A stretch of DNA of 64,000 nt from Candidatus Latescibacterota bacterium. GTDB lineage: Bacteria > Latescibacterota > UBA2968 > UBA8231. A program made the translations under genes and the position numbers. Shown piece after piece: positions 13,030-34,021 of this stretch. The stretch spans positions 1,248,001 through 1,312,000 of the forward strand of contig CBDETK010000013.1 of assembly GCA_965242865.1 (NCBI GenBank), written 5' to 3'. Each line of letters begins with the position of its first letter. Positions within the stretch are counted from its first letter, which is position 1. The notes beneath the pieces are model-generated. The model ran no database searches. It was not told the DNA's origin and was given only the letters and a program-made list of their open reading frames with translations.

Positions 13030-13032
13030 CGG

Positions 13033-15434: not shown

Positions 15435-15740
15435 TTAAGCGACGTATTTCTGGATGCCGACGACGAGGGCGATGCTCAGGGCCGAGATCAGCGCGACCCC
15501 GACGAGCGTGACGAGCAGAATTTTGCCCGTGAGGTAAATCCCCAAACCCATGAGGCAGGCCACCACTCCCACCCAGAAAATCATCAGCCCCACCCACTAA
15601 GCCAACCCGTCCTTGTCGGCGACCCGGTCCGGGTTGAGGCCGGAGATTAGGCCGATGCGTTTTTTAACCCCGATCAGATAGGCGATGACATAGAGCGGCA
15701 GAGCGGAGAGTAGCATGACGAGGAAGATGAGGGTGTTCAT
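15435..15740 (-). pseudogene. Small 3-TM membrane protein (DUF3784-like) interrupted by TAG
   Basis: SD AGGA then MNTLIFLVMLL...GVKKRIGLISGLNPDRVADKDGLA*WVGLMIFW...IQKYVA*; in-frame TAG at 15597-15599 (codon 48 of 102). Confidence 0.6.
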
Positions 15741-15852
15741 TTGAGAATCCTCTTATATACGAGGTTAGAGAAGCTCACATGCCGTAGTCGTGGTTCGGTT
15801 CCTTATGAACCAAGCCGGTCCTGTTGGGCCAAACAAAAAACAGCGGACACGA

Positions 15853-16875: not shown

Positions 16876-16969
16876 TTTAAGAAACTCCCTTGGGTAAGAT
16901 GGTTTACTCGATGCCACCATGAGCGCGTAGATAAAGGACTACTTCTTTGTACTTTTCCCAGAACGTTTA

Positions 16970-17325
16970 ATGGCTTGACCAAAGGCGTCTGGTTACGCTT
17001 ATCACGGGCGTTTACGTAGGCTCCTTGTTCTACCAGAAAACGCACTACCTCTATATGACCTCCATCAGCCGCATAATGCAAAGCCGTAGTACCCCTATCA
17101 CGGGCGTTTATGTAGGCTCTCTGTTCTACCAGAAAGCGTACTATCTCTATACGGCCTAATTTAGCCACCTCATACAAAGCCGTTTCACCGCGTTTATTAT
17201 GGGTATTGGTATCAGCCCCTGTTCTACCAGAAAGCGTATTACCTCTAAACTGCCGCCCCCAGCCGCATCATGCAAAGCCGTGCTAAGGTATTTATCACGG
17301 GCATTGATATCAGCCCCTTGTCTTG
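16970..17325 (-). pseudogene. Ankyrin-repeat protein fragment
   Basis: About three ANK repeats (TALHDAAGGG, ETALYEVAKLG, TTALHYAADGGH, each followed by VRFLVEQGA-like sequence); 1-nt frameshift near 17218; no start. Confidence 0.7.
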
Positions 17326-17472
17326 CCTAAAGGCAGTTTCACAAAAAAAGGGGCACGGGAATCTCGGAATTTTGAAGTCTTACTCGCAGGCTCTGAAGAA
17401 GTACCGTTCCAAGACGCCGCCGAAAAACCTAAATCCCCTACGGCTGTGGTCGTCTAGCCAGACAGATAAGGA

Positions 17473-17667
17473 TCAAGCAGCGCGTAACTTTTCAGCCGGC
17501 AGTTCCAAGGCTCGCTCCCCGTCGCCCATTTTGACGACGATTCGGAATAGCTGACGTCCCCTACCCCGATTCGTCCTCTATCCTCAACGACCGTCCCCGT
17601 CACGATCCGATTGCCAAAGCTCAAGGCTCAAGCGGACCTTGTCTCCAATGCAGAATTTCGTAGCCAT
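17473..17667 (-). pseudogene. Small hypothetical (SH3-like) gene broken by frameshifts
   Basis: MATKFCIGDKVRLS / FGNRIVTGTVVEDRGRIGVG / RQLFRIVVKMGDGERALELPAEKLRAA* read across frames; a 7-bp TTGAGCC duplication and a short G run are the breaks. Confidence 0.35.
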
Positions 17668-17686
17668 GATTGTCCTGCCTAATGCG

Positions 17687-19663
17687 TCACGACGGAAACG
17701 GCACGGGAATCCCCTCTCCGTGCCACGGGAAAGCATAGCTCGGCGCGTTGCAAAAGCGGTCTAGCCCGGCGCCGATGCGAATCGCCGTGGACGGCGGCAG
17801 TTTCACCGAGAAATACTTCCCTTGTACAGCGGTCACCACCTCGCCATCCTTCCCTGCGGCGCGATACCTGAGCTGAGTAAAGCGGTGCTCGCCAAAGGCC
17901 CCGGCCTGCACGATGAGGCGGCGCGGCTCGTGCCGCGACGTGTTGACGATCTGGATGCCGACCACGGCCGGCCCCAGTTCATCCACCAAGGCGGCCACGT
18001 CTAACGGCAGCCCCGGACGCCGGCGGTCGGCGTCGAAGTAGCGCACGGTGGCGCGCAACAGGCCGCCGTTATAGACCGACTGCGGCGCCCCCAACGCCAC
18101 TTGGGTCAGCCCCTTGGTCAACACCGGCTGCGACGGGAGCCGATTGGTCGCAATGATCTCCAAAGGACTGCGCTCGTCGGCCCGCATGGTCTCGTAAGTC
18201 TCTAACGCCTGCTGGTACTCGGCTCGCAGAATCTGCTCGGGCCAACCCGGATTCTTGCCGTCGTAGTACTGGAAGCGGGCGAATTCGGTATTGCCCCAAT
18301 TCTTCTCGCCCAAAGCCGTGCCCACGTCGTTCCAGTCGCGCTCTACGTCGCCATCGCGCACCGCGGTAATCAACTCGTAGTCCTGCTGGGCCATCGAAGC
18401 GTGATACAGGTGCATGATGTCCTGACCCCGCAGCGGCGTAGGCTCCAGCCAGTAGCCGCGCATCTCAATGCCGTCGCTTACGTGCAGCCCCGGCGCTGGA
18501 TTCCAGTCCCAGCCATCCGGCCCATAGCGCACCGGCACGAGGAATTGCCCGTCCTCCCGCTTCCGGCCGTTATCGACTTGCAACTTGATTTGCGAGCGCA
18601 AAAAGTCGAGATAGCCGTGGTCGCCGGTGAGCAGTTGGGCGCATTCGACCGCGATGTTGATGCCGTGGAACAGGATGTTGTAGCCCTGATAGTGATTCCA
18701 GCCGTACTGGCCGCCCCACCACACGCCCTCGCGGCCCCCGCCGATGACGCCTTGGGCATCGACGTTGTCCGGGCAGATCCCGCCGTTTTGCTCGGTGCGC
18801 TCCATCCACGCCTCCGTGTAGTCGAGCACCCACTGTTTGTACTGGTTGTCGCCGGTGTACAGATAGGCGTTGGTCACCAGCGCGGTGGCTGCGAGGCTGT
18901 TGGGCGTGTCGCACTGCAAGACGAGCCGGTCGAACAGCTCGACAATTTGCCGGCGGCGCACGGGGTTTTCAAACCAGCGGGTCTCCAAGTTTTTGACGAT
19001 GGGATACAGGCTGGCGCGCACTCCGTAGTAGTTGGCTTGGCCGCCCAGCCCGCGGCCGGCCAGCAGCATGGTGTTGGCGTATTCCGCGTCCGCGTGGAGC
19101 TTGGGCCCCTGACTCGAATGGAAGGGCGAGCGCAGAATGCGGTAGTTGGGGTCCCAGTTGGGAGCGTGGGGATCTTCGCCGATGAACAGGGCCGCAAAGC
19201 TCCGCGCCCGCCGCACGTTTTCCGATACCGTGGGATCGGCCACCCCAAAGTCGTACAAGGCCATATTGCCCTCGCCCAAGTGGTGCCACTCCATGGCTTG
19301 GTCGAGGTTCCAAAACTCGTTGTGGATGGACGGCCGGAAGACCTTGGCGTGGTCGTTGTGGCGCGTGCGGTGCTCAAAGCGGTCGTCGCTGATGCGGGTG
19401 ACGGCGTTCCAGTTGCGGAAGTGGAGGTCGAGCAAATCGTCGGCCGCGCCCAGTGCGTAGAACAGGCCAAAGTTGTACATCTGCTCGTAGAGATCATCGA
19501 CATCCTCGGCCAGCAAGGTGCCGCCGCCGCGCTCGAAGTAGCGCCGGGCGAACAGACGCCCCGACTCCTCCATCAGCGCGATTAGATTCCGCTCCATCAA
19601 GGCCCACGCCGGCGGGGCCGCCACCTCGGTCGCTTCAATCCCAATCACATTGTTTGCTGTCAT
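17687..19663 (-). CDS. Conserved hypothetical protein, about 658 aa, possibly an alpha/alpha-barrel enzyme
   Basis: Long ORF with host-like codon use; SD AGGAGG before ATG at 19663; rich in W/Y/D/E (DDLYE, EWHHLGEG, WWGGQYGW). Confidence 0.7.
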   Translation of the reverse strand: MTANNVIGIEATEVAAPPAWALMERNLIALMEESGRLFARRYFERGGGTLLAEDVDDLYEQMYNFGLFYALGAADDLLDLHFRNWNAVTRISDDRFEHRTRHNDHAKVFRPSIHNEFWNLDQAMEWHHLGEGNMALYDFGVADPTVSENVRRARSFAALFIGEDPHAPNWDPNYRILRSPFHSSQGPKLHADAEYANTMLLAGRGLGGQANYYGVRASLYPIVKNLETRWFENPVRRRQIVELFDRLVLQCDTPNSLAATALVTNAYLYTGDNQYKQWVLDYTEAWMERTEQNGGICPDNVDAQGVIGGGREGVWWGGQYGWNHYQGYNILFHGINIAVECAQLLTGDHGYLDFLRSQIKLQVDNGRKREDGQFLVPVRYGPDGWDWNPAPGLHVSDGIEMRGYWLEPTPLRGQDIMHLYHASMAQQDYELITAVRDGDVERDWNDVGTALGEKNWGNTEFARFQYYDGKNPGWPEQILRAEYQQALETYETMRADERSPLEIIATNRLPSQPVLTKGLTQVALGAPQSVYNGGLLRATVRYFDADRRRPGLPLDVAALVDELGPAVVGIQIVNTSRHEPRRLIVQAGAFGEHRFTQLRYRAAGKDGEVVTAVQGKYFSVKLPPSTAIRIGAGLDRFCNAPSYAFPWHGEGIPVPFPS

Positions 19664-19812
19664 CGCTTGCACCTCCTGTGCGCGAGAAAGGGTCGGACGT
19701 AATTCTAGGCGGCGACCAGCAGGCGGGCAAGCGGCCTGCTTGCCGCTCCAGCCGCATCTCTTACCTTAATAAAGACGTGAACAGTAACCCACCCCACTCA
19801 GGAGGAACCATC

Positions 19813-20175
19813 ATGCAGCACCCCCCCGAAGTCAGCCCTGATCTCGCGCACGTAGAGTTGTCCAAGCGGTTAGACAGCATTGAGCGCCGCCTCGACCGCA
19901 TGGAGACCAATCAACGCGAGGACAACGCCCAACTGCGGCAGGATATGAACCAAGCCAACGTCCAACTGCGGCAAGACAATGTCCAACTGCGGCAGGACAT
20001 GCAGCAAGACAATGCCCAACTGCGGCAGGATATGAACCAAGCCAACGCTCAACTGCGGCAGGAAATAGCGGAGACCAACCGCCGCATTGACCGATTAACC
20101 CGCTGGGTTATCGGCATTCAGCTTACAACGCTGATTGCCTTAGGCACCCTGATCTTGACGCGCCTGCCGGGCTAA
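19813..20175 (+). CDS. DUF1640/CCDC90-like coiled-coil protein with C-terminal TM anchor, copy 1 (120 aa)
   Basis: SD AGGAGG; (DNxQLRQ) and (DMNQANxQLRQ) repeats followed by WVIGIQLTTLIALGTLIL. Confidence 0.75.
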   Translation: MQHPPEVSPDLAHVELSKRLDSIERRLDRMETNQREDNAQLRQDMNQANVQLRQDNVQLRQDMQQDNAQLRQDMNQANAQLRQEIAETNRRIDRLTRWVIGIQLTTLIALGTLILTRLPG

Positions 20176-20232
20176 TAAACCACCCTAGTCCACCGTGCTA
20201 ATAAAAAGCGGTTGGATGGCGTGGTGATCATT

Positions 20233-20328
20233 GAAGATTTGAATAAAAAAGCCGCGACGCCTCTTAAGTATCAACGAATAATAAATACATAAGTGATTGT
20301 TTTTAATAAATTTATGAAGTGGGGGGGG
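20233..20328 (+). promoter_or_regulatory. AT-rich upstream element with IHF-like sites and G8 tract, copy 1
   Basis: TATCAACGAATAA and TAAGTGATTGTTT (reverse AAACAATCACTTA) each differ from WATCAANNNNTTR at one position; ATG at 20314 then G8 at 20321-20328. Confidence 0.6.
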
Positions 20329-22981
20329 AATTGCCTTCCTCGCCATCTTGGGCACCGCCCACATCCTCGTCCGTACCGCCACCTACGGCGCGGTCATCGG
20401 CACGGACTCCATAGTTTTCCTGTCCACGGCCCTGAACTTCCTCGCCGGCGAAGGCTGGCGAGATTTCGGGGGCAAACTGATGGTGGGCTGGCCGCCCTTG
20501 TTCCCCCTGCTGCTGGCGGCTCTCGGTTGGGTAGGCATCGAGCCGCTGGAAGCAGGGCGACTGATCAACGCCGCGGCCTTCGGGCTGACCATCCTCGCCG
20601 CGGGATGCTGGCTGCGCTCGAATCTCCGGTCGCGGTGGCTGGCACTGGCCGCCACTGCGACCCTCGCGGCCTCCCTGCCCTTGAGCAATTGGGCGTCCCA
20701 CTTCATGACCGATCCCCTCTTCGTCTTGTTTACGCTCCTCGCCTTGAGCCAGTTGGCGGCCTTTCTCAACCGAAAGACGGACGCGCCCCTGTGGTGGGCG
20801 GCGGTGTTCACCGCCTTAGCCGCGCTGACCCGCTATCCGGGCGTGGTGCTCATCGGTGCCGGCGTTCTCATGCTGCTGCCCCTCGCCCGGCTAAGACACA
20901 CCCTCGTCTTTGCCGCGGTCTCGTCCCTGCCCTTGCTCGCGGTATTGGCACGCAATTGGACGGTCTCCGAGACCTTGACTGGGCGAGATACGAAGGGCTC
21001 GGGGCAGTCCCTATCCGAGGGGCTAAGCCAGACTGTCAAGGTATTCCGCGAGTGGGTCGTCCCCCCGAACGCGCCGGATGGGCTCGCATATCTGCTGTGG
21101 CTGGCGGTCGGGTTGGTGGGGTTGGCTGGCGCGGTGGTCGCCCTGCGCGGTCGCCAGCCCCAGAGGCCGGCGTATTTCCGCTTGGGGCCGGTGCTCCCTT
21201 TCGGGGTGTTCGCCCTAGCTTACCTCGTATTCAAAGTCACTGTCGTGCCCTTCACGGTTGCTCATGGCATCTCCGACCGTTACCTGCTGCCGGTGCATGT
21301 ACCGCTGCTGTTGGCGGCGGTGTTCCTGCTCGATCGGTTCCTGTCCATACAGGCGGCGGGCGGAATGGCCACGGCCCGTTACGGGCTGGCGGCCCTCGTC
21401 ATTGCTGGCGCCTTCGCCCACACCGGCTTCTCGGCGCGAGAAAACCTCCGTCTTACCGCCCAAGGACGGGTAGCCGGATACCATTATGAAAGCGTCCGTT
21501 ATCAGCATTCCGAGACCCTGAATTACATCAGGACCCATCTTAGCAATGGTAGGATTTACAGCAACCACCCCGTCCTTGCTTGGTTTTGGGATCGGACTGC
21601 GGTCCCGAGAAAGCACCAGTCTATCCCGGACGAGATTCACCATTTGACGTCGTCCATAATGTATTGGACCGATGGAGACGGTGCATATATCGTATGGCTA
21701 AAGCATCTTTCCGACTACGACTACGACTACGACTACGACTACGACGACTTTGACATCCGCTACCTGCCCGGGGTGGAACCCGTGGCCGAGCTAGCCGATG
21801 GCGTGGTATTCCGCGTAACGGCCGCCGAACCATTCGATGCGGAAAAGCATCGCGCCCGCAAACAACGCTACGTGCAGCAACTCATCGAACAGGCTGGCGA
21901 GCGAGTGGTCCACGCCGGCTGGGACGTATACCGCAACGGACGCACGCTGACCTACCACAAACAGCCGTGTGCCCCCGACGATGTGCAGGCGAATTTCGTG
22001 TTGCACGTCATCCCCGCCGACCCAGCCGACCTGCCAGCCGACCGCCAGCAGCACGGCTATGAAGGCTTCGGCTTCAACTTTCACACCCGCGGCGGCTTAC
22101 AGATCGACGATCAGTGTATGGCGACCACCCAACTCCCCGACTACCCCATCGGCCTCATCCGGGTCGGCCGGTGGATTGCCAAAGAGGACCGCACCGTGTT
22201 GGGAGCGGAGTTTTCGGGCACCGGGGATGGATCCTACGGGGAATTCTCCGAGATCCTGAAGTACATCCGAGACCACCGCATGGACGGCCCGATATACAGC
22301 AACCACCACCACCTTGCTTGGTTTTGGGATCGGACCGCGACCCCGGGAAAGCACCAGCCTCTCCCGGACGAGATTCACCATTTGCCGTCGGCCATAATGC
22401 AGTCCGGCGACAGCGTGCATATCGCATGGCTCCGAAAGAAAAAGACTTTGTACGACTACAACGACCTCTGCATCCGCTTGCTGCCCGGCGTGGAACCCGT
22501 GGCCGAGCTAGCCGATGGGGTGGTCTTCCGCGTAACGGCCGCCGAACCGTTCGATGCGGCAAGGCATCGCACCCGCAAACAACGCTATGTGCAGCAACTC
22601 ATCCAACAGGCCGGCGAGCGAGTGGTCCACGCCGACTCGACTTGGCCGGTCAGCACTTGGGGCGCAGAACCGGCTGGCGAGCAGGTGGTTCGCGCCGGCT
22701 GGGACGTGTACCGCAACGGACGCACCCTGACCTACCGCAAACAGCCGTGTGCCCCCGCCGACGTGCAGACCGATCTCCTTTTACAAGTCATCCCCGACGA
22801 CCCGGCCGACCTACAGGCCGACTTTGACAACCTCGACTTCAATTTCCACGCCCACGGCGGCGTGCGGCTCGACGACCAGTGTGTGGCAACCGCCCAACTC
22901 CCCGACTACCCCATCGGACGCACCTATATTGGCCGGTGGATTGCCGGCAACAGCCGCACCCTCTGGGACGTGGATTTTTAG
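20314..22981 (+). CDS. GT-C glycosyltransferase paralog 6, frameshifted at the G8 tract (OFF state) and fused to a second extracytoplasmic half
   Basis: ATG at 20314 reads MKWGGNC out of frame; G7 or G10 would give ...GIAFLAILG as in paralog 7. The main frame is open 20348-22981 (877 aa). Confidence 0.75.
21713..21742 (+). repeat. (GACTAC)5 in-frame hexamer repeat encoding DYDYDYDYDY
   Basis: Read directly from the sequence. Confidence 0.9.
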
Positions 22982-22985
22982 GAAT

Positions 22986-23019
22986 CCCGAGTATGCCGGA
23001 CGTCCTCGGCATACTCGGG
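22986..23019. terminator. 13-bp perfect hairpin between convergent genes (paralog 6 and higA)
   Basis: CCCGAGTATGCCG-gacgtcct-CGGCATACTCGGG; no U tract; a degenerate copy lies at about 24047-24080. Confidence 0.5.
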
Positions 23020-23078
23020 CTATGGGGTATTCGCTGGCTATGTAGGAGCAGCCGAAGGGCATTCGACCGCGACGGAGC

Positions 23079-23477
23079 CTAGACGAATACTGCGGGGGAA
23101 ACGCCGAACCGATTGGACAAAGCACGTATCTGCCGGACGTTCAGCACCCGCTTGCCGCCGAGGACCGCCGAAACAACCCCTTGCGAACCCACCTCTGGCA
23201 AGTCCGCCTCGGTCAGATCGTGCTCCTCCATGAGAAAACAAAGGGCCTCCACCCCCTCCAGCTCGGGCATGGGATGGTGTTGTTCCTCCCAAGCATGGAC
23301 AACCGCACCCAACGTATCGAGCAGAGAATACAGGGGATGCTGCTCATCCGTGCCCACTTCGTCGATCAGGCGGTTGAGACGCACCAGTGCCAAGTCATAT
23401 TCCTGCTCGTCCCGAATGCTGAGTAAGGCACTTACTTGCGTCCAAGATTGCTGAAGCGGCGGGGCGATGACACTCAT
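23079..23477 (-). CDS. higA: HigA-family HTH antitoxin
   Basis: IRDEQEYD...LLDTLG...WEEQH...LMEEHDL...GSQGVVS.VL.GKR.LNVRQIRALS.RFGVSPAVF; ATG overlaps the higB remnant stop. Confidence 0.8.
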   Translation of the reverse strand: MSVIAPPLQQSWTQVSALLSIRDEQEYDLALVRLNRLIDEVGTDEQHPLYSLLDTLGAVVHAWEEQHHPMPELEGVEALCFLMEEHDLTEADLPEVGSQGVVSAVLGGKRVLNVRQIRALSNRFGVSPAVFV

Positions 23478-23590
23478 GTCGTCCATTCTCCACGGTCGTA
23501 GGCTGGGTGCGTAAGGACATGGCGGATATATACTTTTCCCCGATTGAAGTGAATAGAGGCAATCAGGCGATACTTATTGCCGGCGATACG
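23474..23590 (-). pseudogene. higB: 5'-truncated HigB toxin remnant
   Basis: IAGNKYRLIASIHFNRGKVYIRHVLTHPAYDRGEWTT* is the typical HigB C-terminus; the N-terminal half is absent. Confidence 0.75.
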
Positions 23591-23659
23591 GTATCGCAAT
23601 CTGCGATATATTGCAATAAGCGGTCAGTCCGCCGCGATGCGGTTGAGAAACCTCGGCGG

Positions 23660-24042
23660 GCCGTAGACTCCATAACTTTTCTGTCCACGGCCACGAACTT
23701 CCTCGCGGGAGAGGGCTGGTGGGATGTCAGGGGCGACCCGCTGGTGGGATGGCCGCCGTTGTTCCCCCTGCTGCTGGCGGCCTCGGGTTGGGTCGGCCTT
23801 GATGCAGACCGGACCGCCGCCTCGGGAAAACACCAGCGTCTCCCGGACGAGCTTCACGATGTGATACCTCACATAATGGCGACATGGCGACCGGCGGCAC
23901 CGGCGCGCATATCGTTTGGTTCAGGAGGCAAAAGAATTTTTACGACGACGACGACATGAACCTCCGTCTCCTGCCCGGCGTGGAACCCGTGGCCAAACTG
24001 GCCGATGGCGTAGTATTCCGCGTCTGGGACGTGGACTTTTAG
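23660..24042 (+). pseudogene. Collapsed GT-C paralog remnant made of three spliced segments
   Basis: DSITFLSTATNFLAGEGW...GWVGLD | ADRTAASGKHQ...GVVFRV | WDVDF*; junctions near 23803 and 24023. Confidence 0.8.
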
Positions 24043-24171
24043 GGATCCCGTTGATGCCGGACGTCCTCGGCATACTCGGGCTATGGGGTGTTTGGGACTG
24101 GATGTTCGATGGCTAGGTAGGCGGGCAAGCGGCCTGCTTGCCGCTCCAGCCGCATCTCTTACCTTATAAAC

Positions 24172-24957
24172 GTGAACAGTAAAGACTATCTGCACGCCCT
24201 CTTCGCCTGCGAGGGCCGCCACGCTATTGTCACGGGGGCCTCCAGCGGCTTAGGCGCCGAAATGGCCCGCGTCCTCGTCTCAGCGGGCGCGGACGTCCTC
24301 GCGGTCGCCCGCCGCCAAGAGCGTCTCCAAGCATTGGCCGACCAAGTGCAAGACCGCGCCGGAACCATCCACGTACACGCGGCCGACCTCAGCGACACCG
24401 CCGCCATCGCCGCCCTGCCCGAGCAGGCGCAGGCGCGGCTCGGCGGCTGCGACATCTTGGTCGCCAATGCTGGCACCGCCACCCGCGTCCGCCTCGAAGA
24501 CATGGCCGAGCAGGACTTTGCCGTGGTCGTCGATCTCAACCTCAAGGCTCAGTGGCTACTCGCCAAAGCCTGCTTCCCCTTGCTTTGCCAATCGGGCACC
24601 GGCCGCATCGTCAACATCGCCTCGATTTACGGCTTGGGGGCCTCGGTGATCAACGGCCTGAGTGCGTACACCGCCAGCAAACACGGGCTCGTGGGGCTGA
24701 CGCGCTCGCAGGCGGTGGAGTGGAGCCGGCACGGCATCACCGCAAACGCCATCGCCCCGAGCTACTTTCCCACCGAATTGACCGAGACCGCGCTCGACAA
24801 CGAGAAGATGAGCACTCGCCTGCGTAGCTTTACGCCACAGGGCCGCTTTGGCCAGCCGGCCGAGCTGGCTACCACCCTACTCTTCTTGTGCTCAAAGGCC
24901 AGTGGCTACGTCAACGGGGCCGTCGTCCCCGTAGATGGCGGCTGGACGGCGTGGTGA
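24172..24957 (+). CDS. Short-chain dehydrogenase/reductase (FabG-like)
   Basis: TGASSGLG, NAG, YTASK and VDGGWTA. Confidence 0.9.
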   Translation: MNSKDYLHALFACEGRHAIVTGASSGLGAEMARVLVSAGADVLAVARRQERLQALADQVQDRAGTIHVHAADLSDTAAIAALPEQAQARLGGCDILVANAGTATRVRLEDMAEQDFAVVVDLNLKAQWLLAKACFPLLCQSGTGRIVNIASIYGLGASVINGLSAYTASKHGLVGLTRSQAVEWSRHGITANAIAPSYFPTELTETALDNEKMSTRLRSFTPQGRFGQPAELATTLLFLCSKASGYVNGAVVPVDGGWTAW

Positions 24958-25011
24958 TAATGGCCACTGGCCGGAAGCCCTGGAGACCCACCCTACTCAG
25001 GAGGAACCATC

Positions 25012-25308
25012 ATGCAGCATCCCCCCGAAGTCAGCCCTGATCTCGCGCACGTGGAGTTGTCCAAGCGGCTAGACAGCATTGAGCGCCGCCTCGACCGCAT
25101 GGAGACCAACCAACGCGAGGATAACGCCCAACTGCGGCAGGACAATGTCCAACTGCGGCAAGATATGAACCAAGCCAACGCCCAACTGCGGCAGGAAATA
25201 GCGGAGACCAACCGCCGCATTGACCGATTAACCCGCTGGATGATCGGCATTCAGCTTACAACGCTGATTGCATTGGGCACCCTGATCTTAACTCGTTTGC
25301 CGGGCTAA
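25012..25308 (+). CDS. DUF1640/CCDC90-like coiled-coil membrane protein, copy 2 (98 aa)
   Basis: Near identical to 19813-20175 with fewer repeats. Confidence 0.75.
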   Translation: MQHPPEVSPDLAHVELSKRLDSIERRLDRMETNQREDNAQLRQDNVQLRQDMNQANAQLRQEIAETNRRIDRLTRWMIGIQLTTLIALGTLILTRLPG

Positions 25309-25406
25309 TGAACCACCCCGTCCCCGTAGATGGCGGCTGGACGGCGTGGTGATAATGGCCACTGGCCGGAAGCCCTAGAGACTCACCCCACTCAGGAGGA
25401 ACCATC

Positions 25407-25682
25407 ATGCAGCATCCCCCCGAAGTCAGCCCTGATCTCGCGCACGTGGAGTTGTCCAAGCGGCTAGACAGCATTGAGCGCCGCCTCGACCGCATGGAGA
25501 CCAACCAACGCGAGGACAACGCCCAACTGCGACAAGATATGAACCAAGCTAACGCCCAACTGCGGCAGGAAATAGCGGAGACCAACCGCCGCATTGACCG
25601 ATTAACCCGCTGGATGATCGGCATTCAGCTTACAACGCTGATTGCATTGGGCACCCTGATCTTGACGCGCTTGCCGGGCTAA
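25407..25682 (+). CDS. DUF1640/CCDC90-like coiled-coil membrane protein, copy 3 (91 aa)
   Basis: Near identical to copy 2 minus one heptad. Confidence 0.75.
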   Translation: MQHPPEVSPDLAHVELSKRLDSIERRLDRMETNQREDNAQLRQDMNQANAQLRQEIAETNRRIDRLTRWMIGIQLTTLIALGTLILTRLPG

Positions 25683-25756
25683 TGAACCACCTAGTCCACC
25701 GTGCGGAGCGAAGATTGCCGAGCGAATAAAAAGCGGTTGGACGGCGTGGTGATCAT

Positions 25757-25861
25757 TGAAGATTTGAATAAAAAAGCCGCGACGCATCCTGAGTATCAAC
25801 GAATAATAAATACGTAAGTGATTGTTTTTAATAAACTTATGAAACGAGGGGGGGGGGGGGG
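25757..25861 (+). promoter_or_regulatory. AT-rich upstream element with G14 tract, copy 2
   Basis: Near identical to 20233-20328; ATG at 25839 and G14 at 25848-25861. Confidence 0.6.
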
Positions 25862-27803
25862 AATTGCCTTCCTCGCCATCTTGGGCACCGCCCACATCCT
25901 CGTCCGCACCGCCCCCTCCGGAGCACTGCGCGGTGCCGACTCCATGAAATTCCTATACACCGCCATGAACTTCCTCGCGGGAGAAGGCTGGCAGGATTTC
26001 ATGGGCCTCCCGCTGACAGGATGGCCGCCCTTGTTCCCTCTGCTGCTGGCGGCCAGTGCCTGGGTTGGCATTGAGCCGGTGGAGGCGGGTCGGTGGATCA
26101 ACGCCACCGCCTTCGGGCTGACCATCCTCGCCGCGGGATGCTGGCTGTGCACGAATCTCCGGTCGCGGTGGCTGGTGCTGGCCACCACCGCGGTCGCGGC
26201 CTCCCTGCCCTTGAGCTATGAAGCGTCACGCTTCATTACCGAGCCCCTCTTCGTCCTGTTTACGCTCCTCGCCTTGATGCACTTGGCGTCCTTCCTCCAC
26301 CGGCGGACGGACGCGCCCCTGTGGTGGGCGGCGGGTTTCACCGCGCTGGCCGCGCTGACCCGCTATCCGGGCGTGGTGCTAATCGGCACCGGCGTCCTGC
26401 TGCTGCTGCCCCGCGCCCGGCTCAAGCAGACCCTCGGCTTTGGCGCGATCTCGTCCCTGCCCTTGCTGGCGGTATTGGTGCATAATTGGGCGGTCTCCGA
26501 GACCCTGACCGGGAGACCTACGAAGACCTCGGGACAGTCCCTATCCGCTGGGCTGAGCCAGATCGTTGATGTATTCAGTGAGTGGGTCGTCCCTCCGAAC
26601 GCACCGGATGGGGTGGCGTATCTGCTGTGGCTGGCGGTCGGGTTGGTCGGGCTGGCCGGCGCGGCGGTCGTCCTGCACCGGTCGCCAGCCGGACCCAGGG
26701 CCGCGCCGGCGTATTTCCGCTTGGAGCCGGCTATCCCATTCGGGGTATTCGCCGTAGCCTACTCCGTATCTCTGGTCGCTGTCGTGCCCTTCACGGTAAC
26801 TCAGATCGTCGACAGCCGCTACCTGCTGCCGGTGTATGTGCCGCTGCTATTGACGGCGGTGTTGCTGTTGGACCGGTTCCTGTCCATCGAGATGTGGGTC
26901 GGAGGGGTTGCCATCCGGTACGGTCTGGCGTCCCTCGTCTTGCTGGCGTCCCTCGCCCACACCGGCTTCTCAGCGCGAAGAAACCTCCAAATTACCGCCA
27001 GAATATTGGAAGGCGGGTGGGTTCCTCGCACTCCCTCGCAGGCAACTCATGCCTCTTGGCCACATTCCGATTGGCAATATTCCGAGACCCTGATGTACTT
27101 TAGGACCAACCGCATGGATGGCAGGATTTACACCAACGACATCGGATTCCTCGCTTGGTCTGAGGATTGGCTCACCGCCCCAGGAGAGTACCGAAAGTAC
27201 CGACAAATCCCGCGCGGGAAGCCAAACAGGAAGGGATGGACCGAGATCGAGGCCGGAGCCTATATCGTTTGGTTTGACAGAGCCCATGATCCAGTTCATT
27301 ATCGCTACGATGCCCTTGATTACCGTCTCCTGCCTGGCGTGGAAACCGTGGCCGAACTGGCCGACGGCGTGGTCCTCCGCGTACTCCGCCAAACGACAGC
27401 CGAACCCTTCGAGACACAAAGGCATCGCGCCCGCAAACAACGCTACATCAACCAACTCATCCAACAGGCTAACGAGCGAGTAGAGCGCGCTGGCTGGACC
27501 GTGTACCGCACCGGACGCAAGCTGACCTACTTCAAAAAGCCGTGTACCCGCGCCGATGTGCAGGCCAAGTTCGTCTTGCACGTCACCCCCGCCGATTTGG
27601 CCGACCTGCTCGCCCACCGTCAGCGATACGGCTTTGACAATCTCGACTTCTATTTCGACCGGCACGACGTCCGGCTCTACAACGAGTGTGTGGAGGTCAT
27701 CCGCCTCCCCCCTTACCCCATCGACCGTATCCGGGTCGGCCAGTGGATTTCCGCCGAGAACCGCACCCTCTGGGACGCAGAATTTGCGGGGGCCGGGGAT
27801 TGA
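25839..27803 (+). CDS. GT-C glycosyltransferase paralog 7 (G14 tract in frame, ON)
   Basis: MKRGGGGGIAFLAILG...ADSMKFL...TEPLF...TRYPG...SRYLLP. Confidence 0.8.
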   Translation: MKRGGGGGIAFLAILGTAHILVRTAPSGALRGADSMKFLYTAMNFLAGEGWQDFMGLPLTGWPPLFPLLLAASAWVGIEPVEAGRWINATAFGLTILAAGCWLCTNLRSRWLVLATTAVAASLPLSYEASRFITEPLFVLFTLLALMHLASFLHRRTDAPLWWAAGFTALAALTRYPGVVLIGTGVLLLLPRARLKQTLGFGAISSLPLLAVLVHNWAVSETLTGRPTKTSGQSLSAGLSQIVDVFSEWVVPPNAPDGVAYLLWLAVGLVGLAGAAVVLHRSPAGPRAAPAYFRLEPAIPFGVFAVAYSVSLVAVVPFTVTQIVDSRYLLPVYVPLLLTAVLLLDRFLSIEMWVGGVAIRYGLASLVLLASLAHTGFSARRNLQITARILEGGWVPRTPSQATHASWPHSDWQYSETLMYFRTNRMDGRIYTNDIGFLAWSEDWLTAPGEYRKYRQIPRGKPNRKGWTEIEAGAYIVWFDRAHDPVHYRYDALDYRLLPGVETVAELADGVVLRVLRQTTAEPFETQRHRARKQRYINQLIQQANERVERAGWTVYRTGRKLTYFKKPCTRADVQAKFVLHVTPADLADLLAHRQRYGFDNLDFYFDRHDVRLYNECVEVIRLPPYPIDRIRVGQWISAENRTLWDAEFAGAGD

Positions 27804-27806
27804 ACG

Positions 27807-29819
27807 ATGAAGTCCTCCGCCATCGAGCGGCTCACCCGGTTCGGACGCGACCCCTTCATGCTGCTTACCGCCTTGATCGCCGGGCTGGGCACTGCCCACA
27901 TCCTCGTCCGCACCGCCACCTACGGAGCGAAGACCACCTACGACTCCGTATATTTCCTGTACACGGCCCTGAATTTCCTCACCGGAGAGGGCTGGCGGGA
28001 TCTCTCAGACACCCCGCTGGTCGTATGGCCGCCCTTGTTTCCCCTGCTGCTAGCGGCCGGTGGCTGGGTTCGCATCGATCCGGTGGAGGCGGGTCGGTTT
28101 ATCAACGCCACCGCCTTCGGGCTGACCATCCTCGCCGCCGGGTGCTGGCTGCGCTCAAATCTCCGGTTGCAGTGGCTGGCACTGGCCGCCACCGCGACCA
28201 TCGCGGCGTCCTTGCCTTTGAGCCATTTCGCGTCGTGGATCAAGACCGACTTCCTCTTCGTCCTGTTGACGCTCCTCGCCTTGGTCCAGTTGGCGGCCTT
28301 CCTGCATCGCGGCGGGCGGACGCTGCTGCTGCTGGGCGCGGTTTGCACCGCGCTGGCCGCGGTGACCCGCTATCCGGGCGTGGTCTTGATAGGCGTCGGC
28401 GTCCTCATACTGCTGGGGCGGCGCACCCCGCCGCTGGCCGCCCGGTTGAAAGACGCCGTCGCATTTGGGGCTGTCTCATCCTTGCCCCTCTCCGGAGTGC
28501 TGATGTACAACTGGACGGTCTCCGGCACCCTGACCGGGGGGAGAAGCGGGGCGGGGCAGTCCCTGTCCGCTGGGCTGAACCAAGTGGCGGATGTATTCAG
28601 GGAGTGGGTGATTCCCCCGAATGTGCCAGACGGGTTTGGCTATCTCCTGTGGACCGCGGCTGGGCTGGTTGTAGCAGCGGGGGTGGTCGTCGTGGTGGTC
28701 GGTCGCGGCTTAGGCCTGGGAGGAAAGAATCGGCCGGCGTCGCCGTTCTTAGGGTTGGGGCCGGCACTCCCATTCGGGGGGTTCGCCGTAGCTTACCTCG
28801 GATTCATGGTCGCCATCGTGCCCTTCACGGTTTATCAGGGCATCGACAGCCGCTACCTGCTGCCGGTCTATGTCCCGCTGCTGTTGACGGTCGTGTTCTT
28901 GCTGGATCGGTTCCTGTCCATCGAGGCGACAGGTCGGATAGCCGCGGTCCGGTCCGGTCTGGCGTCCCTCGTCCTGCTGGCCGCCCTCGCCCACACCGGC
29001 TTCTCGGCGCACAGAAACCTCCGCATTACCGCCGCAGCTTATGTAGCCGGGTTCGAAAGCTGGACGCTCAATGGCTCCTACTGGGAACCTTCCGAGACCC
29101 TGAAGTACATCAGAACCCGCCTTAGCGATGGCAGGATTTTCAGCAACAACCCCCACCTTGCTTGGTTTTGGGATCGGACCGCCGCCCTCGGAAAGCACCG
29201 GGGGCTCCCGGGCAGGCTTCACAAGGTGATACCGCGCATAATGCGGAGTACCGAGGGCGACGGCGCACATATCGTTTGGCTCCATAATGAAAAACCAGGC
29301 TCTCTTCACGACGACGACCGGCACTACTACGATGCTCTGGACATCCGCTGCCTGCCCGGCGTGGAACCCGTGGCCGAGCTATCCGACGGGGTGGTGTTCC
29401 GCGTAACGGCGGCGACCGAACCGTTCGATGCGGACCGGCATCGCGCCCGGAGACAACGCTACTTAGACCAACTCCTCGAACCGGCCGGCGAGCGGGTGGT
29501 CCGCGCCGACTGGGACGTGTACCGCAACGGACGCAAGCTGACCTATCTCAAAAAGCCATGTACACCAGCCGATGTGCAGGCCAAGTTCGTTTTGCGCGTC
29601 ATCCCGGCCGACCCAGCCGATCTGCCAGCCTCCCGCCAGCGGTACGGCTTTGACAACCTCGGCTTCTATTTCGACCGGCGCGGCTTCCGGCACGGCGACC
29701 AGTGTATGGCGACCGTTCATCTACCCACCTACGCCATCGGCCACATCCGGGTCGGTCAGTGGATTTCCGCCGAGAACCGCACCCTCTGGGAAGCGGAGTT
29801 TGCGGGGGCCGGGGATTGA
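27807..29819 (+). CDS. GT-C glycosyltransferase paralog 8
   Basis: ATG 3 nt after the previous stop; YDSVYFL, TRYPG and SRYLLP. Confidence 0.8.
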   Translation: MKSSAIERLTRFGRDPFMLLTALIAGLGTAHILVRTATYGAKTTYDSVYFLYTALNFLTGEGWRDLSDTPLVVWPPLFPLLLAAGGWVRIDPVEAGRFINATAFGLTILAAGCWLRSNLRLQWLALAATATIAASLPLSHFASWIKTDFLFVLLTLLALVQLAAFLHRGGRTLLLLGAVCTALAAVTRYPGVVLIGVGVLILLGRRTPPLAARLKDAVAFGAVSSLPLSGVLMYNWTVSGTLTGGRSGAGQSLSAGLNQVADVFREWVIPPNVPDGFGYLLWTAAGLVVAAGVVVVVVGRGLGLGGKNRPASPFLGLGPALPFGGFAVAYLGFMVAIVPFTVYQGIDSRYLLPVYVPLLLTVVFLLDRFLSIEATGRIAAVRSGLASLVLLAALAHTGFSAHRNLRITAAAYVAGFESWTLNGSYWEPSETLKYIRTRLSDGRIFSNNPHLAWFWDRTAALGKHRGLPGRLHKVIPRIMRSTEGDGAHIVWLHNEKPGSLHDDDRHYYDALDIRCLPGVEPVAELSDGVVFRVTAATEPFDADRHRARRQRYLDQLLEPAGERVVRADWDVYRNGRKLTYLKKPCTPADVQAKFVLRVIPADPADLPASRQRYGFDNLGFYFDRRGFRHGDQCMATVHLPTYAIGHIRVGQWISAENRTLWEAEFAGAGD

Positions 29820-29919
29820 CCCTCTTTTGGGGACACCCCTATCTTTAGACAGGGCGGCGAAAATAGGTTGTACCTCCGTAGCCCCGGCACGGGCAGGCTC
29901 GGATGCGGATGGCACTAGA

Positions 29920-30000
29920 CTAAGAATAATAACATAAGTGATTGTTTTTACTGAATTTATGATGGGGAGGGGGGGGGGAGATTTACCCTCTCCACGGTGA
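29920..30000 (+). promoter_or_regulatory. Partial AT-rich element (copy 3) with G10 tract inside a 13-codon leader ORF
   Basis: CATAAGTGATTGTTTTTA...TTTATGATG; G10 at 29969-29978; ATG at 29959 reads MMGRGGGDLPSPR* and its TGA (29998-30000) overlaps GTG at 29997. Confidence 0.55.
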
Positions 30001-32051
30001 AGTCCTCCGCATTCGAGCGGCTCGCCCGGTTCGGGCGCGACCCCTTCATGCTGCTCATCGTCGTCCTCGCCGGGCTAGGCACCGCCCACATCCTCGTCCG
30101 CACCGCCGCCTATGGTGGGGGAGGCCACTACGACTCCGTGCGCTTCCTGTCCACAGCCATGAACTTCCTCGCCGGCGAGGGCTGGCGGGATTTCAGGGGC
30201 GAACCGATGACGCAGTGGCCGCCTTTGTTCCCTCTGCTGCTGGCGGCTCTCGGTTGGGTGGGCATCGAGCCGCAGGCGGCGGGTCGGTTTATCAACGCCA
30301 CGGCCTTTGGGCTGACTATCCTCGCCGCGGGCTGCTGGCTACGCTCAAATCTCCGGTCGCAGTGGCTGGCAGTGGTCGCCACCGCGACCATCGCGGCTTC
30401 CCTGCCCTTGAGCAAACTCGCGTCCTACTTCTTTAACGACTCCCTCTTCGTCCTGTTTACGCTCCTCGCCTTGATGCACTTGGCGTCCTTCCTCCATCGG
30501 CGGACGACCGCGCCCCTGTGGTGGGCGGCGGGTTTCACCGCGCTGGCCGCGCTGACCCGCTATCCGGGCGTGGCCCTGATCGGCGTCGGCGTCCTGCTGC
30601 TGCTGCCCCGCGCCCGGCTCAAGCAGACCCTCGGCTTTGGCGCGATCTCGTCCCTGCCCTTGCTGGGAGTATTGGCGCACAACTGGGCGGTCACCGGGCA
30701 CCTGACCCGGGCAACAAGGAACACCCTATCGGCTGGGATGAGCCAGACCGTCAAGGTGTTCGGCGAGTGGATCGTCCGGGCAACAGGGAACAGAACAAAT
30801 GCTACCGGGCAGTCCCTATCCGAGGGACTAAGCCAGACTGTCAATGTGTTTCGCGAGTGGGTCGTCCCCGCGAACGCGCCGGATGGGGTGGCGTATCTGC
30901 TGTGGCTGGCGGTCGCCGCAGTCGGGCTGGCCGGTGCCGCGGTCGTCCTGCACACCACCCGAATGCGAAGCGACGACAGCGGGAGAGCCCACGCATCGTA
31001 TTTCCATTTAGGGCCGGTTATCCCTTTCGGGGTGTTCGCCCTAGCCTATCCCGTATTCATGGTCGCTGTCGTGCCCTTAACGATTGATCAAGGCATCGAC
31101 AGCCGCTACCTGCTGCCGGTGTATGTGCCCCCGCTATTGGCGGCGGTGTTCCTGCTGGACCGGTTCCTGTCCATTGAGGCGGCAGGCTGGAGGGTTGCCG
31201 TCCGGTACGGTCTGGCGTCCCTCATCCTGCTCGGTGCCCTCGCCCACACCGGCTTATCGGCGCACAGAAACCTCCGTATTACCGCCAGAGCATTGGAAGA
31301 CGGGTACTTAGGGTTCTGGGCGGACAATACCTTTTGGCAACCTTCCGAGACCCTGAATTACATTAGGACCAACCACATGGACGGCAGGATTTACAGCAAC
31401 GATCCCTTCCTCGCTTGGTCTGAGGAGAAGATCGCCGCCCCGGGCAAGTACCGAATGATCCCGCACGGGAAGTCAAAGCAGAAGGGATGGACCGAGATCG
31501 AGGCCGGAGCCTATATCGTTTGGTTTGACAGACTCCATAATCCAAGGGGGCTTCGCTACGACTCCTTTGACTTCCGTCTGCTGCCCGACGTGGAAACCGT
31601 GGCCGAACTGGCCGACGGCGTGGTACTCCGCGTACTCCGCCGAACAACAGTCGGATCCCTCGATATACAAAGGCACGCCCGCAAACAACGCTACGTGGAC
31701 CAACTCATCCAACAGGCCAGCCAGCGAGTCGAGCGCGCCGGCTGGACCGTGTGCCGCACCGGACGCAAGCTGACCTACTTCAAAAACCCGTGTACCCTCG
31801 CCGACGTGCAGGCCAAGTTCGTCTTGCACGTCACCCCCGCCGACTTGGCCGACCTGCCCGCCTACCGCCAGCGATACGGCTTTGACAATCTCGACTTCTA
31901 TTTTGACCGGAGCGATGTCCGACGCGATAACCCGTGTGTGGAGATCATCCGACTCCCCGCTTACCCCATCGGTCGCATCCGAGTCGGTCAGTGGATTTCC
32001 AGAGAGAACCGCACCCTCTGGGACGCAGAGTTTGCGGGGGCCGGGGATTGA
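29997..32051 (+). CDS. GT-C glycosyltransferase paralog 9
   Basis: GTG start; HYDSVRFL, TRYPG and SRYLLP; internal duplication RAT...LSxGxSQTVxVFxEW. Confidence 0.8.
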   Translation: MKSSAFERLARFGRDPFMLLIVVLAGLGTAHILVRTAAYGGGGHYDSVRFLSTAMNFLAGEGWRDFRGEPMTQWPPLFPLLLAALGWVGIEPQAAGRFINATAFGLTILAAGCWLRSNLRSQWLAVVATATIAASLPLSKLASYFFNDSLFVLFTLLALMHLASFLHRRTTAPLWWAAGFTALAALTRYPGVALIGVGVLLLLPRARLKQTLGFGAISSLPLLGVLAHNWAVTGHLTRATRNTLSAGMSQTVKVFGEWIVRATGNRTNATGQSLSEGLSQTVNVFREWVVPANAPDGVAYLLWLAVAAVGLAGAAVVLHTTRMRSDDSGRAHASYFHLGPVIPFGVFALAYPVFMVAVVPLTIDQGIDSRYLLPVYVPPLLAAVFLLDRFLSIEAAGWRVAVRYGLASLILLGALAHTGLSAHRNLRITARALEDGYLGFWADNTFWQPSETLNYIRTNHMDGRIYSNDPFLAWSEEKIAAPGKYRMIPHGKSKQKGWTEIEAGAYIVWFDRLHNPRGLRYDSFDFRLLPDVETVAELADGVVLRVLRRTTVGSLDIQRHARKQRYVDQLIQQASQRVERAGWTVCRTGRKLTYFKNPCTLADVQAKFVLHVTPADLADLPAYRQRYGFDNLDFYFDRSDVRRDNPCVEIIRLPAYPIGRIRVGQWISRENRTLWDAEFAGAGD

Positions 32052-34021
32052 TGAAGTCCTCCGCCTTCGAGCGGCTCGCCCGGTTCGGGCGCGACCCCTT
32101 CGCGCTGCTCATCGTCGTCCTCGCCGGGCTAGGCACCGCCCACATCCTCGTCCGCACCGCCACCTACGGCCCGGCGAGCATCTACGACTCCATACGTTTC
32201 CTGTCCACAGCCATGAACTTCCTCGCGGGAGAGGGCTGGCGGGATTTCAAGGGCCTCCCGCTGACAGGATGGCCGCCTTTGTTCCCTCTGCTGCTAGCGG
32301 CCTTCGGTTGGGTAGGCATCGAGCCGCAGGCGGCGGGTCGGTTTATCAACGCCACCGCCTTCGGGCTGACCATCCTCGCCGCGGGGTGCTGGCTGCGCTC
32401 AAATCTCCGGTCGCGGTGGCTGGTGCTGACCGCCATCGCGACCATTACGGCCTCCCTGCCCTTGAGCCATTGGATGGCACATTTCATTACCGAGCCCCTC
32501 TTCGTCCTGTTTACGCTCCTCGCTTTGATGCACTTGGCGTCCTTCCTCCACCGGCGGACGGACGCGCCCCTGTGGTGGGCGGCGGGTTTCACCGCGCTGG
32601 CCGCGCTGACCCGCTATCCGGGCGTGGCCCTGATCGGCGTCGGCGTCCTGCTGCTGCTGCCCCGCGCCCGGCTCAAGCAGACCCTCGGCTTTGGCGCGAT
32701 CTCGTCCCTGCCCTTGCTGGGAGTATTGGCGCACAACTGGGCGGTTACCGGGCACCTGACCGAAGCAACAAGTAAAAAACCCCTGTTCGCTGAGCAGTCC
32801 CTAGCGGCTGGACTGATCCAGATCGTCAAAGTGTTCGGCGAGTGGGTCGTCCCCCCGAACGCGCCGGAGGGGGGGGCGTATTTGCTGTGTCTGGCGGTCG
32901 GGTTGGTCGGGCTGGCCGGCGCCGCGGTCGTCCTGCACCGCCACCCCGAATGCACCACGCCGGCGTATTCCCGTTTGGAGCCAGCTATCCCATTCGGGGT
33001 GTTCGCCGTAGCCTACCCGGTATTCATGATCGCCGTCGTGCCCTTCACGGTTAAGCAGGGCATCGACAGCCGCTACCTGCTGCCGGTCTATGTGCCGCTG
33101 CTGTTGACGGTCGTGTTCTTGCTGGATCGGTTCCTCTCCATCGAGGAGGTGGGCTGGAGGGTTGCCATCCGGTACGGTCTGGCGTCTCTCGTCCTGCTGG
33201 CGTTCCTCTCCCACATCGGCTTATCGGCGCACGGGAACCTCCGTATTACCGCCAGAGCATTGGAAGATGGGCAGGAAATTAGCTGGCGGGAAAACCCCGC
33301 CTTTTGGCAGCATTCCGAGACCCTGAATTACATTAGGACCAATCGCATGGATGGCAGGATTTACAGCAATAACCCCTTCCTCGCTTGGTCTGAGGAGAGG
33401 ATCGCCGCCCCGGGAAAGTACCGACAAATCCCGCACGGGAGGTCACACGGGAAGGGATGGACCGAGATCGAGGCCGGGGCCTATATCGTTTGGTTTGACA
33501 GAGCCCATGATCCAACTCGTTTTCGCTACGATGCCCTCGACTACCGTCTGCTGCCCGACGTGGAAACCGTGGCCGAACTGGCCGACGGCGTGGTCCTCCG
33601 CGTACTCCGCCAAACGACAGCCGAACCCTTCGATACACAAAGGCATCGCGCCCGCAAACAACACTACATCAACCAACTCATCCAACAGGCTAACGAGCGA
33701 GTGGAGCGCGCTGGCTGGACCGTGTACCGCACCGGACGCAAGCTGACTTACTTCAAAAAGCCGTGTACCCTCGCCGACGTGCAGGCCAAGTTCGTCTTGC
33801 ACGTCACCCCCGCCGATTTGGCCGCCCTGCCCGCCCACCGCCAGCGATACGGCTTTGACAATCTCGACTTCTATTTCGACCTGATCGGCGTCCGGCTCTA
33901 CAACGAGTGTGTGGAGGTCATCCGACTCCCCGCTTACCCCATCGGCCGCATCCGGGTCGGCCAGTGGATTTCCAGCGAGAACCGCACCCTCTGGGACGCG
34001 GAGTTTGCGCCGGGCCGGTGA
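32051..34021 (+). CDS. GT-C glycosyltransferase paralog 10
   Basis: TGATG overlap start; IYDSIRFL, TEPLF and SRYLLP; internal G8 at 32869-32876. Confidence 0.8.
   Translation: MKSSAFERLARFGRDPFALLIVVLAGLGTAHILVRTATYGPASIYDSIRFLSTAMNFLAGEGWRDFKGLPLTGWPPLFPLLLAAFGWVGIEPQAAGRFINATAFGLTILAAGCWLRSNLRSRWLVLTAIATITASLPLSHWMAHFITEPLFVLFTLLALMHLASFLHRRTDAPLWWAAGFTALAALTRYPGVALIGVGVLLLLPRARLKQTLGFGAISSLPLLGVLAHNWAVTGHLTEATSKKPLFAEQSLAAGLIQIVKVFGEWVVPPNAPEGGAYLLCLAVGLVGLAGAAVVLHRHPECTTPAYSRLEPAIPFGVFAVAYPVFMIAVVPFTVKQGIDSRYLLPVYVPLLLTVVFLLDRFLSIEEVGWRVAIRYGLASLVLLAFLSHIGLSAHGNLRITARALEDGQEISWRENPAFWQHSETLNYIRTNRMDGRIYSNNPFLAWSEERIAAPGKYRQIPHGRSHGKGWTEIEAGAYIVWFDRAHDPTRFRYDALDYRLLPDVETVAELADGVVLRVLRQTTAEPFDTQRHRARKQHYINQLIQQANERVERAGWTVYRTGRKLTYFKKPCTLADVQAKFVLHVTPADLAALPAHRQRYGFDNLDFYFDLIGVRLYNECVEVIRLPAYPIGRIRVGQWISSENRTLWDAEFAPGR

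Follow-up and report, generated by a model that had tools for sequence, protein, structure and literature searches.

Three reports (PMC2193922, PMC8355987 and PMC3068675) describe phase-variable glycosyltransferase genes that carry poly-G tracts in Neisseria (pgtA/pglA, lgt) and the contingency genes of Campylobacter jejuni. The subject of this analysis is a set of comparable G tracts at the start codons of paralogs 6, 7 and 9 of a predicted membrane glycosyltransferase family, which lie in a 64,000-nucleotide window of the genome of a sponge-associated member of the Latescibacterota (G000:C13:1248001-1312000; the source bin, G000, comprises 6.0 Mb with 60.6% GC). Each tract follows the ATG of a conserved AT-rich start cassette. 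The phase-variable enzymes of Neisseria and Campylobacter are mostly soluble GT-A or GT-B proteins. What the systems have in common is a G or C homopolymer in the 5′ coding region that sets the frame, glycan-modifying targets, many loci and a mixture of ON and OFF states. In Neisseria and Campylobacter, which are vertebrate pathogens, the tracts arise within each gene without a shared cassette, and switching has been measured there. Here, in contrast, the genes encode GT-C membrane proteins and begin with a reusable AT-rich cassette, the organism is an uncultured sponge symbiont, and the switching is predicted from sequence.

Two further groups of described systems resemble this one in part. 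The gtrABC genes of Salmonella and Shigella phages confer phase-variable O-antigen glucosylation, GtrC being a membrane transferase that uses a lipid-linked sugar. The likeness lies in a phase-variable, membrane-embedded, glycan-modifying transferase, O-antigen heterogeneity being a property of gtrABC itself; the gtrABC switch is epigenetic (Dam methylation and OxyR at the promoter), whereas a coding-region repeat is found here. In Mycoplasma vlp, Treponema pallidum tpr and Bordetella fim a homopolymer in the promoter alters transcription. With these the present system shares the use of one conserved, homopolymer-bearing upstream module for many paralogs, independent switching being documented for them. 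It differs from them in that the tract lies past the ATG and lacks flanking sigma-70-like hexamers, and in that the cassette is also found on unrelated families. A promoter-spacer switch of the fim, opc or porA type was rejected, as the tract is downstream of the ATG and no sigma-70-like pair flanks it on the + strand.

We consider it likely that the G tracts bring about slipped-strand phase variation in this sponge-associated member of the Latescibacterota. Such a mechanism is already known; what is new is the host, the GT-C targets, the reusable start cassette on unrelated envelope genes and the scale.

Poly-G tracts and reading frames at paralogs 6, 7 and 9

The initial annotation had stated that paralogs 6 and 7 share the same upstream element and the same downstream sequence, that G14 places paralog 7 in frame, and that G8 leaves paralog 6 out of frame, to be restored by G7 or G10. 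All of this was borne out. The starts of the two genes have in common a 28-nucleotide (nt) AT-rich motif, TAAGTGATTGTTTTTAATAAAYTTATGA, and are 94% identical across 100 nt upstream. In paralog 6 the ATG (20314-20316) is followed by AAG, a single T, the G8 tract at 20321-20328 and then AATTGCCTTCCTCGCCATCTTGGGC; in paralog 7 the ATG (25839-25841) is followed by AAA, CGA, the G14 tract at 25848-25861 and then the downstream 25-mer of paralog 6. The tracts are thus 4 nt (G8) and 6 nt (G14) past their start codons. In paralog 7 the ATT at 25863 is 24 nt past ATG 25839 and in frame with it, giving a product of 654 amino acids (aa) with the N-terminus MKRGGGGGIAFLAILG. The corresponding ATT codon of the long frame of paralog 6, at 20330, is 16 nt past ATG 20314 and out of frame with it; removal of one G from G8, or addition of two, restores the frame. 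The long frame of paralog 6 (20348..22981, 877 aa counted from TTG) is stop-free, and its protein is 65% identical to that of paralog 7 over residues 5-654.

A third cassette, with G10 at 29969-29978, lies ahead of paralog 9. At this tract length the cassette ATG opens a frame of 13 codons, the TGA of which (29998-30000) overlaps GTG 29997. In the assembly as read paralog 7 is ON and paralog 6 is OFF, and the call at any one locus is uncertain and provisional.

The tract length would be of no consequence if translation began at the internal TTG 20348 in paralog 6 and at GTG 29997 in paralog 9. The gene caller did choose TTG 20348 for paralog 6 (P0006), and the product of paralog 9 from GTG 29997 (MKSSAFERL...) resembles the N-termini of paralogs 8 and 10. 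At paralog 9 coupled re-initiation is plausible, as the upstream TGA overlaps this GTG and the N-terminus matches those of paralogs 8 and 10. The product started at TTG 20348, however, would contain only about 10 residues of transmembrane helix 1 (which spans residues 6-24 of the structural model), the closest G-rich stretch ends 19 nt before this TTG, too distant for a ribosome-binding site, and in many homologues the called start is that of the cassette. We therefore regard tract-independent starts at the two codons as highly improbable. Since a start at TTG 20348 loses most of helix 1 and has no usable ribosome-binding site, paralog 6 in its G8 state is, judging from the model, most likely non-functional.

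The cassette in the gene family and in the genome

The tracts are not a peculiarity of two genes; they belong to a genome-wide cassette system that the initial annotation had not noticed. The family has about 30 paralogs in the genome (37 match segments). Fifteen of them start with the cassette, and 10 of these 15 carry G8 or a longer run not more than 7 nt from the ATG. The 10 tracts range from G8 to G19; four are in frame (G14 of paralog 7, G9, G13 and G19) and six are out of frame (G8 of paralog 6, G10, G10, G13, G16 and G8). All six out-of-frame genes have 650-880 stop-free codons in the correct phase. In the remaining five cassettes the tract is absent or interrupted by A, and all five are in frame, which is the pattern expected of a switch decaying to a locked ON state. 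Contingency loci have just this signature: the pure tracts are in random phase, the genes are intact and the decayed tracts are locked ON.

The tracts exceed chance expectation. The number of G/C runs in the genome falls about 4-5 fold per added base, from 8302 for length 5 through 1623, 401 and 116 to 24 for length 9, yet 31 runs of at least 12 are present in 6 Mb, and 29-30 of the 31 stand in cassette context, as identified by the cores TTGTTTTT and AAAAACAA. Beyond the 10 family tracts, about 38 are found in a related, near-palindromic cassette (39 rows, one of them a false match), which brings the total to about 48 tracts genome-wide. The target classes are GT-C enzymes, LRR/YWTD lipoproteins and signal-peptide proteins. 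Unlike the ON/OFF calls at single loci, the existence of the cassette system is not provisional.

Nine of the related cassettes with long open reading frames (ORFs) have a poly-C run of 9-19 between a TTG or ATG and a signal peptide, four in frame and five out. The near-palindromic cassette of these secreted-protein genes reads TAAGTCGTTGAAAAACAA..TTA, and their products include proteins with fn3, glucose/sorbosone dehydrogenase (GSDH) and cytochrome c domains.

The arrangement is different at the lipoprotein genes. In 26-27 cassette copies the tract is 260-480 nt upstream of genes for lipoproteins with LRR and LDL-receptor-class-B (YWTD) repeats, which have an ATG led by a Shine-Dalgarno (SD) sequence. 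The longest G run varies from 6 to 20 over 27 copies, and the 100-nt flanks are 88-92% identical. The frame past the tract meets no stop for at least 100 codons in 21 of 26 copies and closes about 10 nt beyond the main ATG; the other two frames close after 4 and 8 codons in most copies. There is also a TTG, 18 nt ahead of the tract, that is in frame in 4 of 26 copies. The tract of the LRR/YWTD genes may act through a leader ORF of about 110-190 codons, as a phase-variable switch of coupling or polarity. An interpretation of this larger cassette family as the end of an IS200/IS605-type element was rejected, the repeat being the 5′ region of the LRR/YWTD lipoprotein genes.

According to the proposed mechanism the G runs would act as slipped-strand contingency switches placed 1-3 codons past the start codon of the conserved AT-rich cassette. 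The cassette would provide both the 5′ leader and the ATG, and its glycine codons would encode the first part of transmembrane helix 1. Replication slippage, by gaining or losing a G, would shift the ATG into or out of frame with a gene of roughly 650-880 codons, and a population would come to contain cells that express different subsets of the roughly 30 paralogs. In the state captured by the assembly paralog 7, and probably the coupled paralog 8 as well, would be ON and paralog 6 OFF. The rate of tract length change in vivo would be high, the OFF state would yield no functional protein, and the enzymes may modify surface glycans, so as to give combinatorial glycoforms. The architecture of the proposed switch is supported, and tract lengths differ among paralogs and species.

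The tracts could instead be static, the out-of-frame copies being young pseudogenes of a fast-duplicating family that record past slippage only. The family is very large and redundant (about 30 paralogs), a deleted paralog fragment is present at 23507-23959, and the genome has mismatch repair genes. Against this, none of the six out-of-frame genes has accumulated a stop over 650-880 codons, long pure tracts (G13-G26) endure although decay by interruption is visibly possible, and the same design is found on unrelated secreted-protein genes. We consider static tracts unlikely.

If, on the other hand, the lengths had been miscounted in assembly, the genes would all be in frame and constitutive, and the glycine run would be a tolerated linker. 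Long homopolymers are a weak point of long-read consensus, and the data at the locus are contigs. Such an explanation would require 6 of the 10 tracts to be wrong, however, including two G8 and two G10, and tract lengths of 8 to 26 over copies and species exceed counting noise. Homopolymers outside the cassettes were also compared with controls. Among the non-cassette G/C runs of at least 8 on the chromosome, 94 of 118 stood in a frame that continues without a stop for 60 codons or more in both directions; by the same criterion the controls were alike (305 of 400 G5/C5 runs and 317 of 400 random sites). As homopolymer frameshifts are not in excess of the controls, assembly error is quite unlikely.

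RNA polymerase slippage or ribosomal frameshifting on the G run could also yield an in-frame share of product at any tract length, making the tract a rheostat. In some endosymbionts and insertion sequences, genes with frameshifts are rescued by transcriptional slippage on long homopolymers; such slippage is best documented on A/T runs, however, and G8 is short for it. Predicted RNA structure at the tracts did not exceed that of shuffled sequences (z +0.58, -1.58 and -0.67), and a rheostat leaves the constant in-frame state of the decayed tracts unexplained. We find this possibility distinctly improbable.

Some observations weigh against slipped-strand switching itself. Four public runs (X7, X8, X10 and X1) gave no indel rows at 20321-28, 25848-61 or 29969-78 within positions 19000-34200, these runs being represented by short, fragmented Logan contigs with unconfirmed bridging of the tracts, from which neither sameness nor difference can be decided. 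The assembly, which we guess from single-contig relatives to be built from long reads, could miscount long homopolymers by one, and the frame control (60 codons on each side) is lenient in a genome with 60% GC. A scan for sigma-70-like promoters on the + strand at the cassettes found none. Finally, the genome encodes both MutS and MutL, so slippage gets no boost from a loss of mismatch repair.

The bin has an estimated contamination of 6.8%. The small contigs C1-C12 were ruled out as allelic copies of the chromosome: among them only C7 matches it, over 1.3 kb, and the tract of C7 is outside the shared part. A 154-kb contig of the bin has C9 and G12 runs with 77 nt between them (G000:C8:93509-93606).

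Related genomes and the predicted fold of the paralogs

The 28-nt motif was found in none of the 40 first-drawn relatives at up to 2 mismatches. A class-wide search at up to 3 mismatches found the cassette in 2 of 131 other genomes, one a sister species of the same genus (G110) and one from another family of the same class (G079). With the motif so rare among relatives, orthologous tract comparison is limited to these two genomes. The sister species has five cassettes, with G10, G11-A-G9, G4AGG, G5 and G26, the G26 copy being out of frame. Its G10 copy starts an AlgX/SGNH-like (polysaccharide acetyltransferase-like) membrane protein that is unrelated to the GT-C family. The second genome has one copy, with G11. 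At 13 homologue loci of five further relatives (G005, G007, G019, G025 and G032) a tract was absent from the gene start; in G019, G025 and G032 the family is expanded, and tracts are absent at the loci checked.

Database homologues with N-termini such as MIVFNKFMRGG..., MRGGII... and MGGGEK... represent the translated cassette. A public contig of 12.7 kb, which encodes P0002, P0005 and P0065, carries an orthologous locus: over their first 60 residues P0005 and paralog 9 are alike but for one position, and so are P0002 and paralog 10. The locus is present in 11 public runs from 4 studies, labelled sponge metagenome, metagenome or with a coded organism name. Scanning metagenomes with a pattern that spans both loci with a variable gap gave no match, and scanning them with the cassette pattern gave one, in an unrelated AT-rich contig.

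The initial annotation had also identified the paralogs as GT-C glycosyltransferases, and structure prediction agrees. The AlphaFold2 (AF2) model of paralog 7, built from 76 diverse sequences, is confident (predicted local distance difference test score, pLDDT, 89.7; predicted template modelling score, pTM, 0.90). Searched against the PDB with Foldseek it gave 35 matches at E<=1e-3, and all 50 rows listed are GT-C enzymes. The top match was ArnT (5f15; E 1.2e-7, target-normalised TM score 0.55), and STT3, AglB, AftA, ALG12, DPY19 and Pmt4 are among the other matches listed. This model superseded a first one from 40 close sequences (pLDDT 59.7), for which the GT-C matches had E values of 3.7e-3 to 0.1.

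Sequence-based searches gave a fainter signal. Pfam returned no match for paralog 7 at E<=0.001 or E<=0.01, and sub-threshold matches to PMT (PF02366) and PMT_2 (PF13231) for two other paralogs in the window. Among 40 close homologues PMT was matched in 10 and PMT_2 in 4 at E<=0.01 (best E 1.7e-5). Of 62 distant homologues, 14 exceeded the PMT/PMT_2 gathering score and 27 matched some GT-C family, with no match to families of other kinds. The neighbours in the ESM Atlas are PMT_2 and PMT clusters at 0.99. A sequence-profile search of the PDB found no GT-C chains; weak RNase H rows for residues 422-491 (E 0.0085) in the same search were taken as chance. By its model, then, paralog 7 is predicted to have the GT-C fold.

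In its predicted architecture, with a periplasmic domain after the multi-helix membrane domain, paralog 7 is like ArnT (5f15 / 5ezm), STT3, AglB, PglB, AftA, Pmt and ALG9/12. Transmembrane helix 1 corresponds to residues 6-24 of the model and is formed by the glycine run and IAFLAILGTAHILV. As in ArnT-type enzymes, conserved acidic residues are found in the first external loop: D34 (at least 90% conserved in alignments A1 and A2) and E49 (invariant in A1) are placed by the model after helix 1 (6-24) and ahead of the helix at 65-75, and may be catalytic. The protein differs from ArnT-type enzymes in having only 10-15% sequence identity with them and a distinct periplasmic domain with a C-terminal module of roughly 100 aa.

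This module (residues about 544-650 of paralog 7, window positions about 27470-27790) recurs alone or in arrays, with up to 10 matched stretches within one database protein. Its many host proteins come from metagenome-assembled genomes (MAGs) of several phyla, which include Dehalococcoidia, Caldilineaceae, Binatia, Gammaproteobacteria, Spirochaetia and Nitrospirales. In paralog 6 the periplasmic C-terminal module is doubled (SETLNYIR...VFRVTAAEPFDA... and then EILKYIR...VFRVTAAEPFDA...).

The paralog array and the meaning of the proposed switches

The coordinates of the tracts, cassettes and genes are collected in Table 1.

Table 1. Positions of cassettes, tracts and genes in the window and of cassette loci elsewhere
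Feature	Position	Strand	Remarks
Small coiled-coil protein gene with C-terminal membrane anchor	19813..20175	+	directly upstream of paralog 6 cassette; translation MQHPPEVSPDLAHVEL...LTRLPG
28-nt AT-rich start cassette of paralog 6, TAAGTGATTGTTTTTAATAAATTTATGA	20290..20317	+	0 mismatches, G000:C13:1268290-1268317; holds ATG 20314-20316 and in-frame GTG 20293 (alignment)
G8 tract	20321..20328	+	ATG 20314 off the long-ORF frame (OFF in assembly)
Paralog 6 coding frame, intact	20330..22981	+	first listed start TTG 20348
28-nt start cassette of paralog 7	25815..25842	+	holds ATG 25839-25841 and in-frame GTG 25818 (alignment)
G14 tract	25848..25861	+	five glycine codons including the adjoining A (ON in assembly)
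Paralog 7, predicted 654-aa GT-C-fold membrane glycosyltransferase	25839..27803	+	AF2 model, Foldseek
Paralog 8, 670 aa, without cassette	27807..29819	+	start 3 nt past paralog 7 stop
Start cassette of paralog 9	29935..29962	+	1 mismatch; ATG 29959
G10 tract	29969..29978	+	opens 13-codon frame from cassette ATG
Paralog 9, 684 aa from GTG	29997..32051	+	
Paralog 10	32051..34021		ATG 32051 overlaps paralog 9 stop by 1 nt
Cassette loci of the same-genus sister species	L046 (G110:C1:575417-578444), L050 (G110:C1:1248214-1251241)		
5′ module of LRR/YWTD genes, examples	G000:C13 4051366, 29160, 1110887; L042:2100-2800		
Secreted-protein poly-C cassettes	G000:C13:319743, 1636418, 2391609, 2707756, 3302172, 3887772, 3892157, 4675744; C7:3165		

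The grouping of the paralogs into GT-C sub-operons, which had been proposed in the initial annotation, applies to paralogs 7-8 (3-nt gap) and 9-10 (1-nt overlap) and not to paralog 6, which is solitary. Paralog 8 is probably on the same transcript as paralog 7. As paralog 8 starts 3 nt past paralog 7 and paralog 10 overlaps paralog 9, one switch may govern both genes of each pair.

The 3′ side of paralog 6 is occupied by an opposite-strand ORF, the paralog fragment 23507-23959, a short-chain dehydrogenase gene and two small coiled-coil genes. The fragment, located between paralogs 6 and 7, is a deleted member of the family in which the N-terminal loop is fused to C-terminal pieces, and is evidence for recombination and decay within the array. 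The two coiled-coil copies (25012-25308 and 25407-25682) form a tandem duplication ahead of paralog 7; the copy at 25407-25682 has no Pfam match. The coiled-coil gene ahead of the paralog 6 cassette has an SD-like aggagg and a C7 run at 19821-19827, which makes up codons 3-5, and a small coiled-coil protein gene is upstream of a switch cassette at L043:2392-2763 as well. Paralogs 1-5 are divided from paralogs 6-10 by an AAA_14 and DUF4143 ATPase gene (12727-14199) and by a low-GC stretch (15000-18000, about 50-57%). Right after the paralog array is a gene for a stand-alone TIR-domain protein (TIR_2, E 2.2e-25; 34159-34629).

Quite possibly, and we put this forward tentatively, the genome has a phase-variable gene set of about 48 switches, derived from one portable, near-palindromic AT-rich cassette with a homopolymer and placed on at least three unrelated kinds of envelope genes (GT-C genes, signal-peptide protein genes and 26-27 LRR/YWTD lipoprotein genes), which would make it the first contingency system in a mutualistic sponge symbiont and in the Latescibacterota. 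A literature search found no paper connecting phase variation with sponge symbionts, and in a 2023 paper on sponge Latescibacterota the words 'phase' and 'homopolymer' do not occur.

The system is open to testing, as reads from single sponges allow the tract lengths to be counted. For annotation it holds a warning: genes of such MAGs that appear 'frameshifted' may be switched off rather than dead. Repeat-driven phase variation has been viewed as a hallmark of host-adapted pathogens. Dozens of putative switches in a sponge symbiont, on a GT-C family that has expanded greatly and on eukaryote-like repeat proteins, the latter thought to mediate host recognition, suggest that bet-hedging of the surface also occurs among mutualists of early-branching animals. 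If the proposed switching is true, it would generate stochastic surface diversity, perhaps as a hedge against phagocytosis by sponge cells or against phage.

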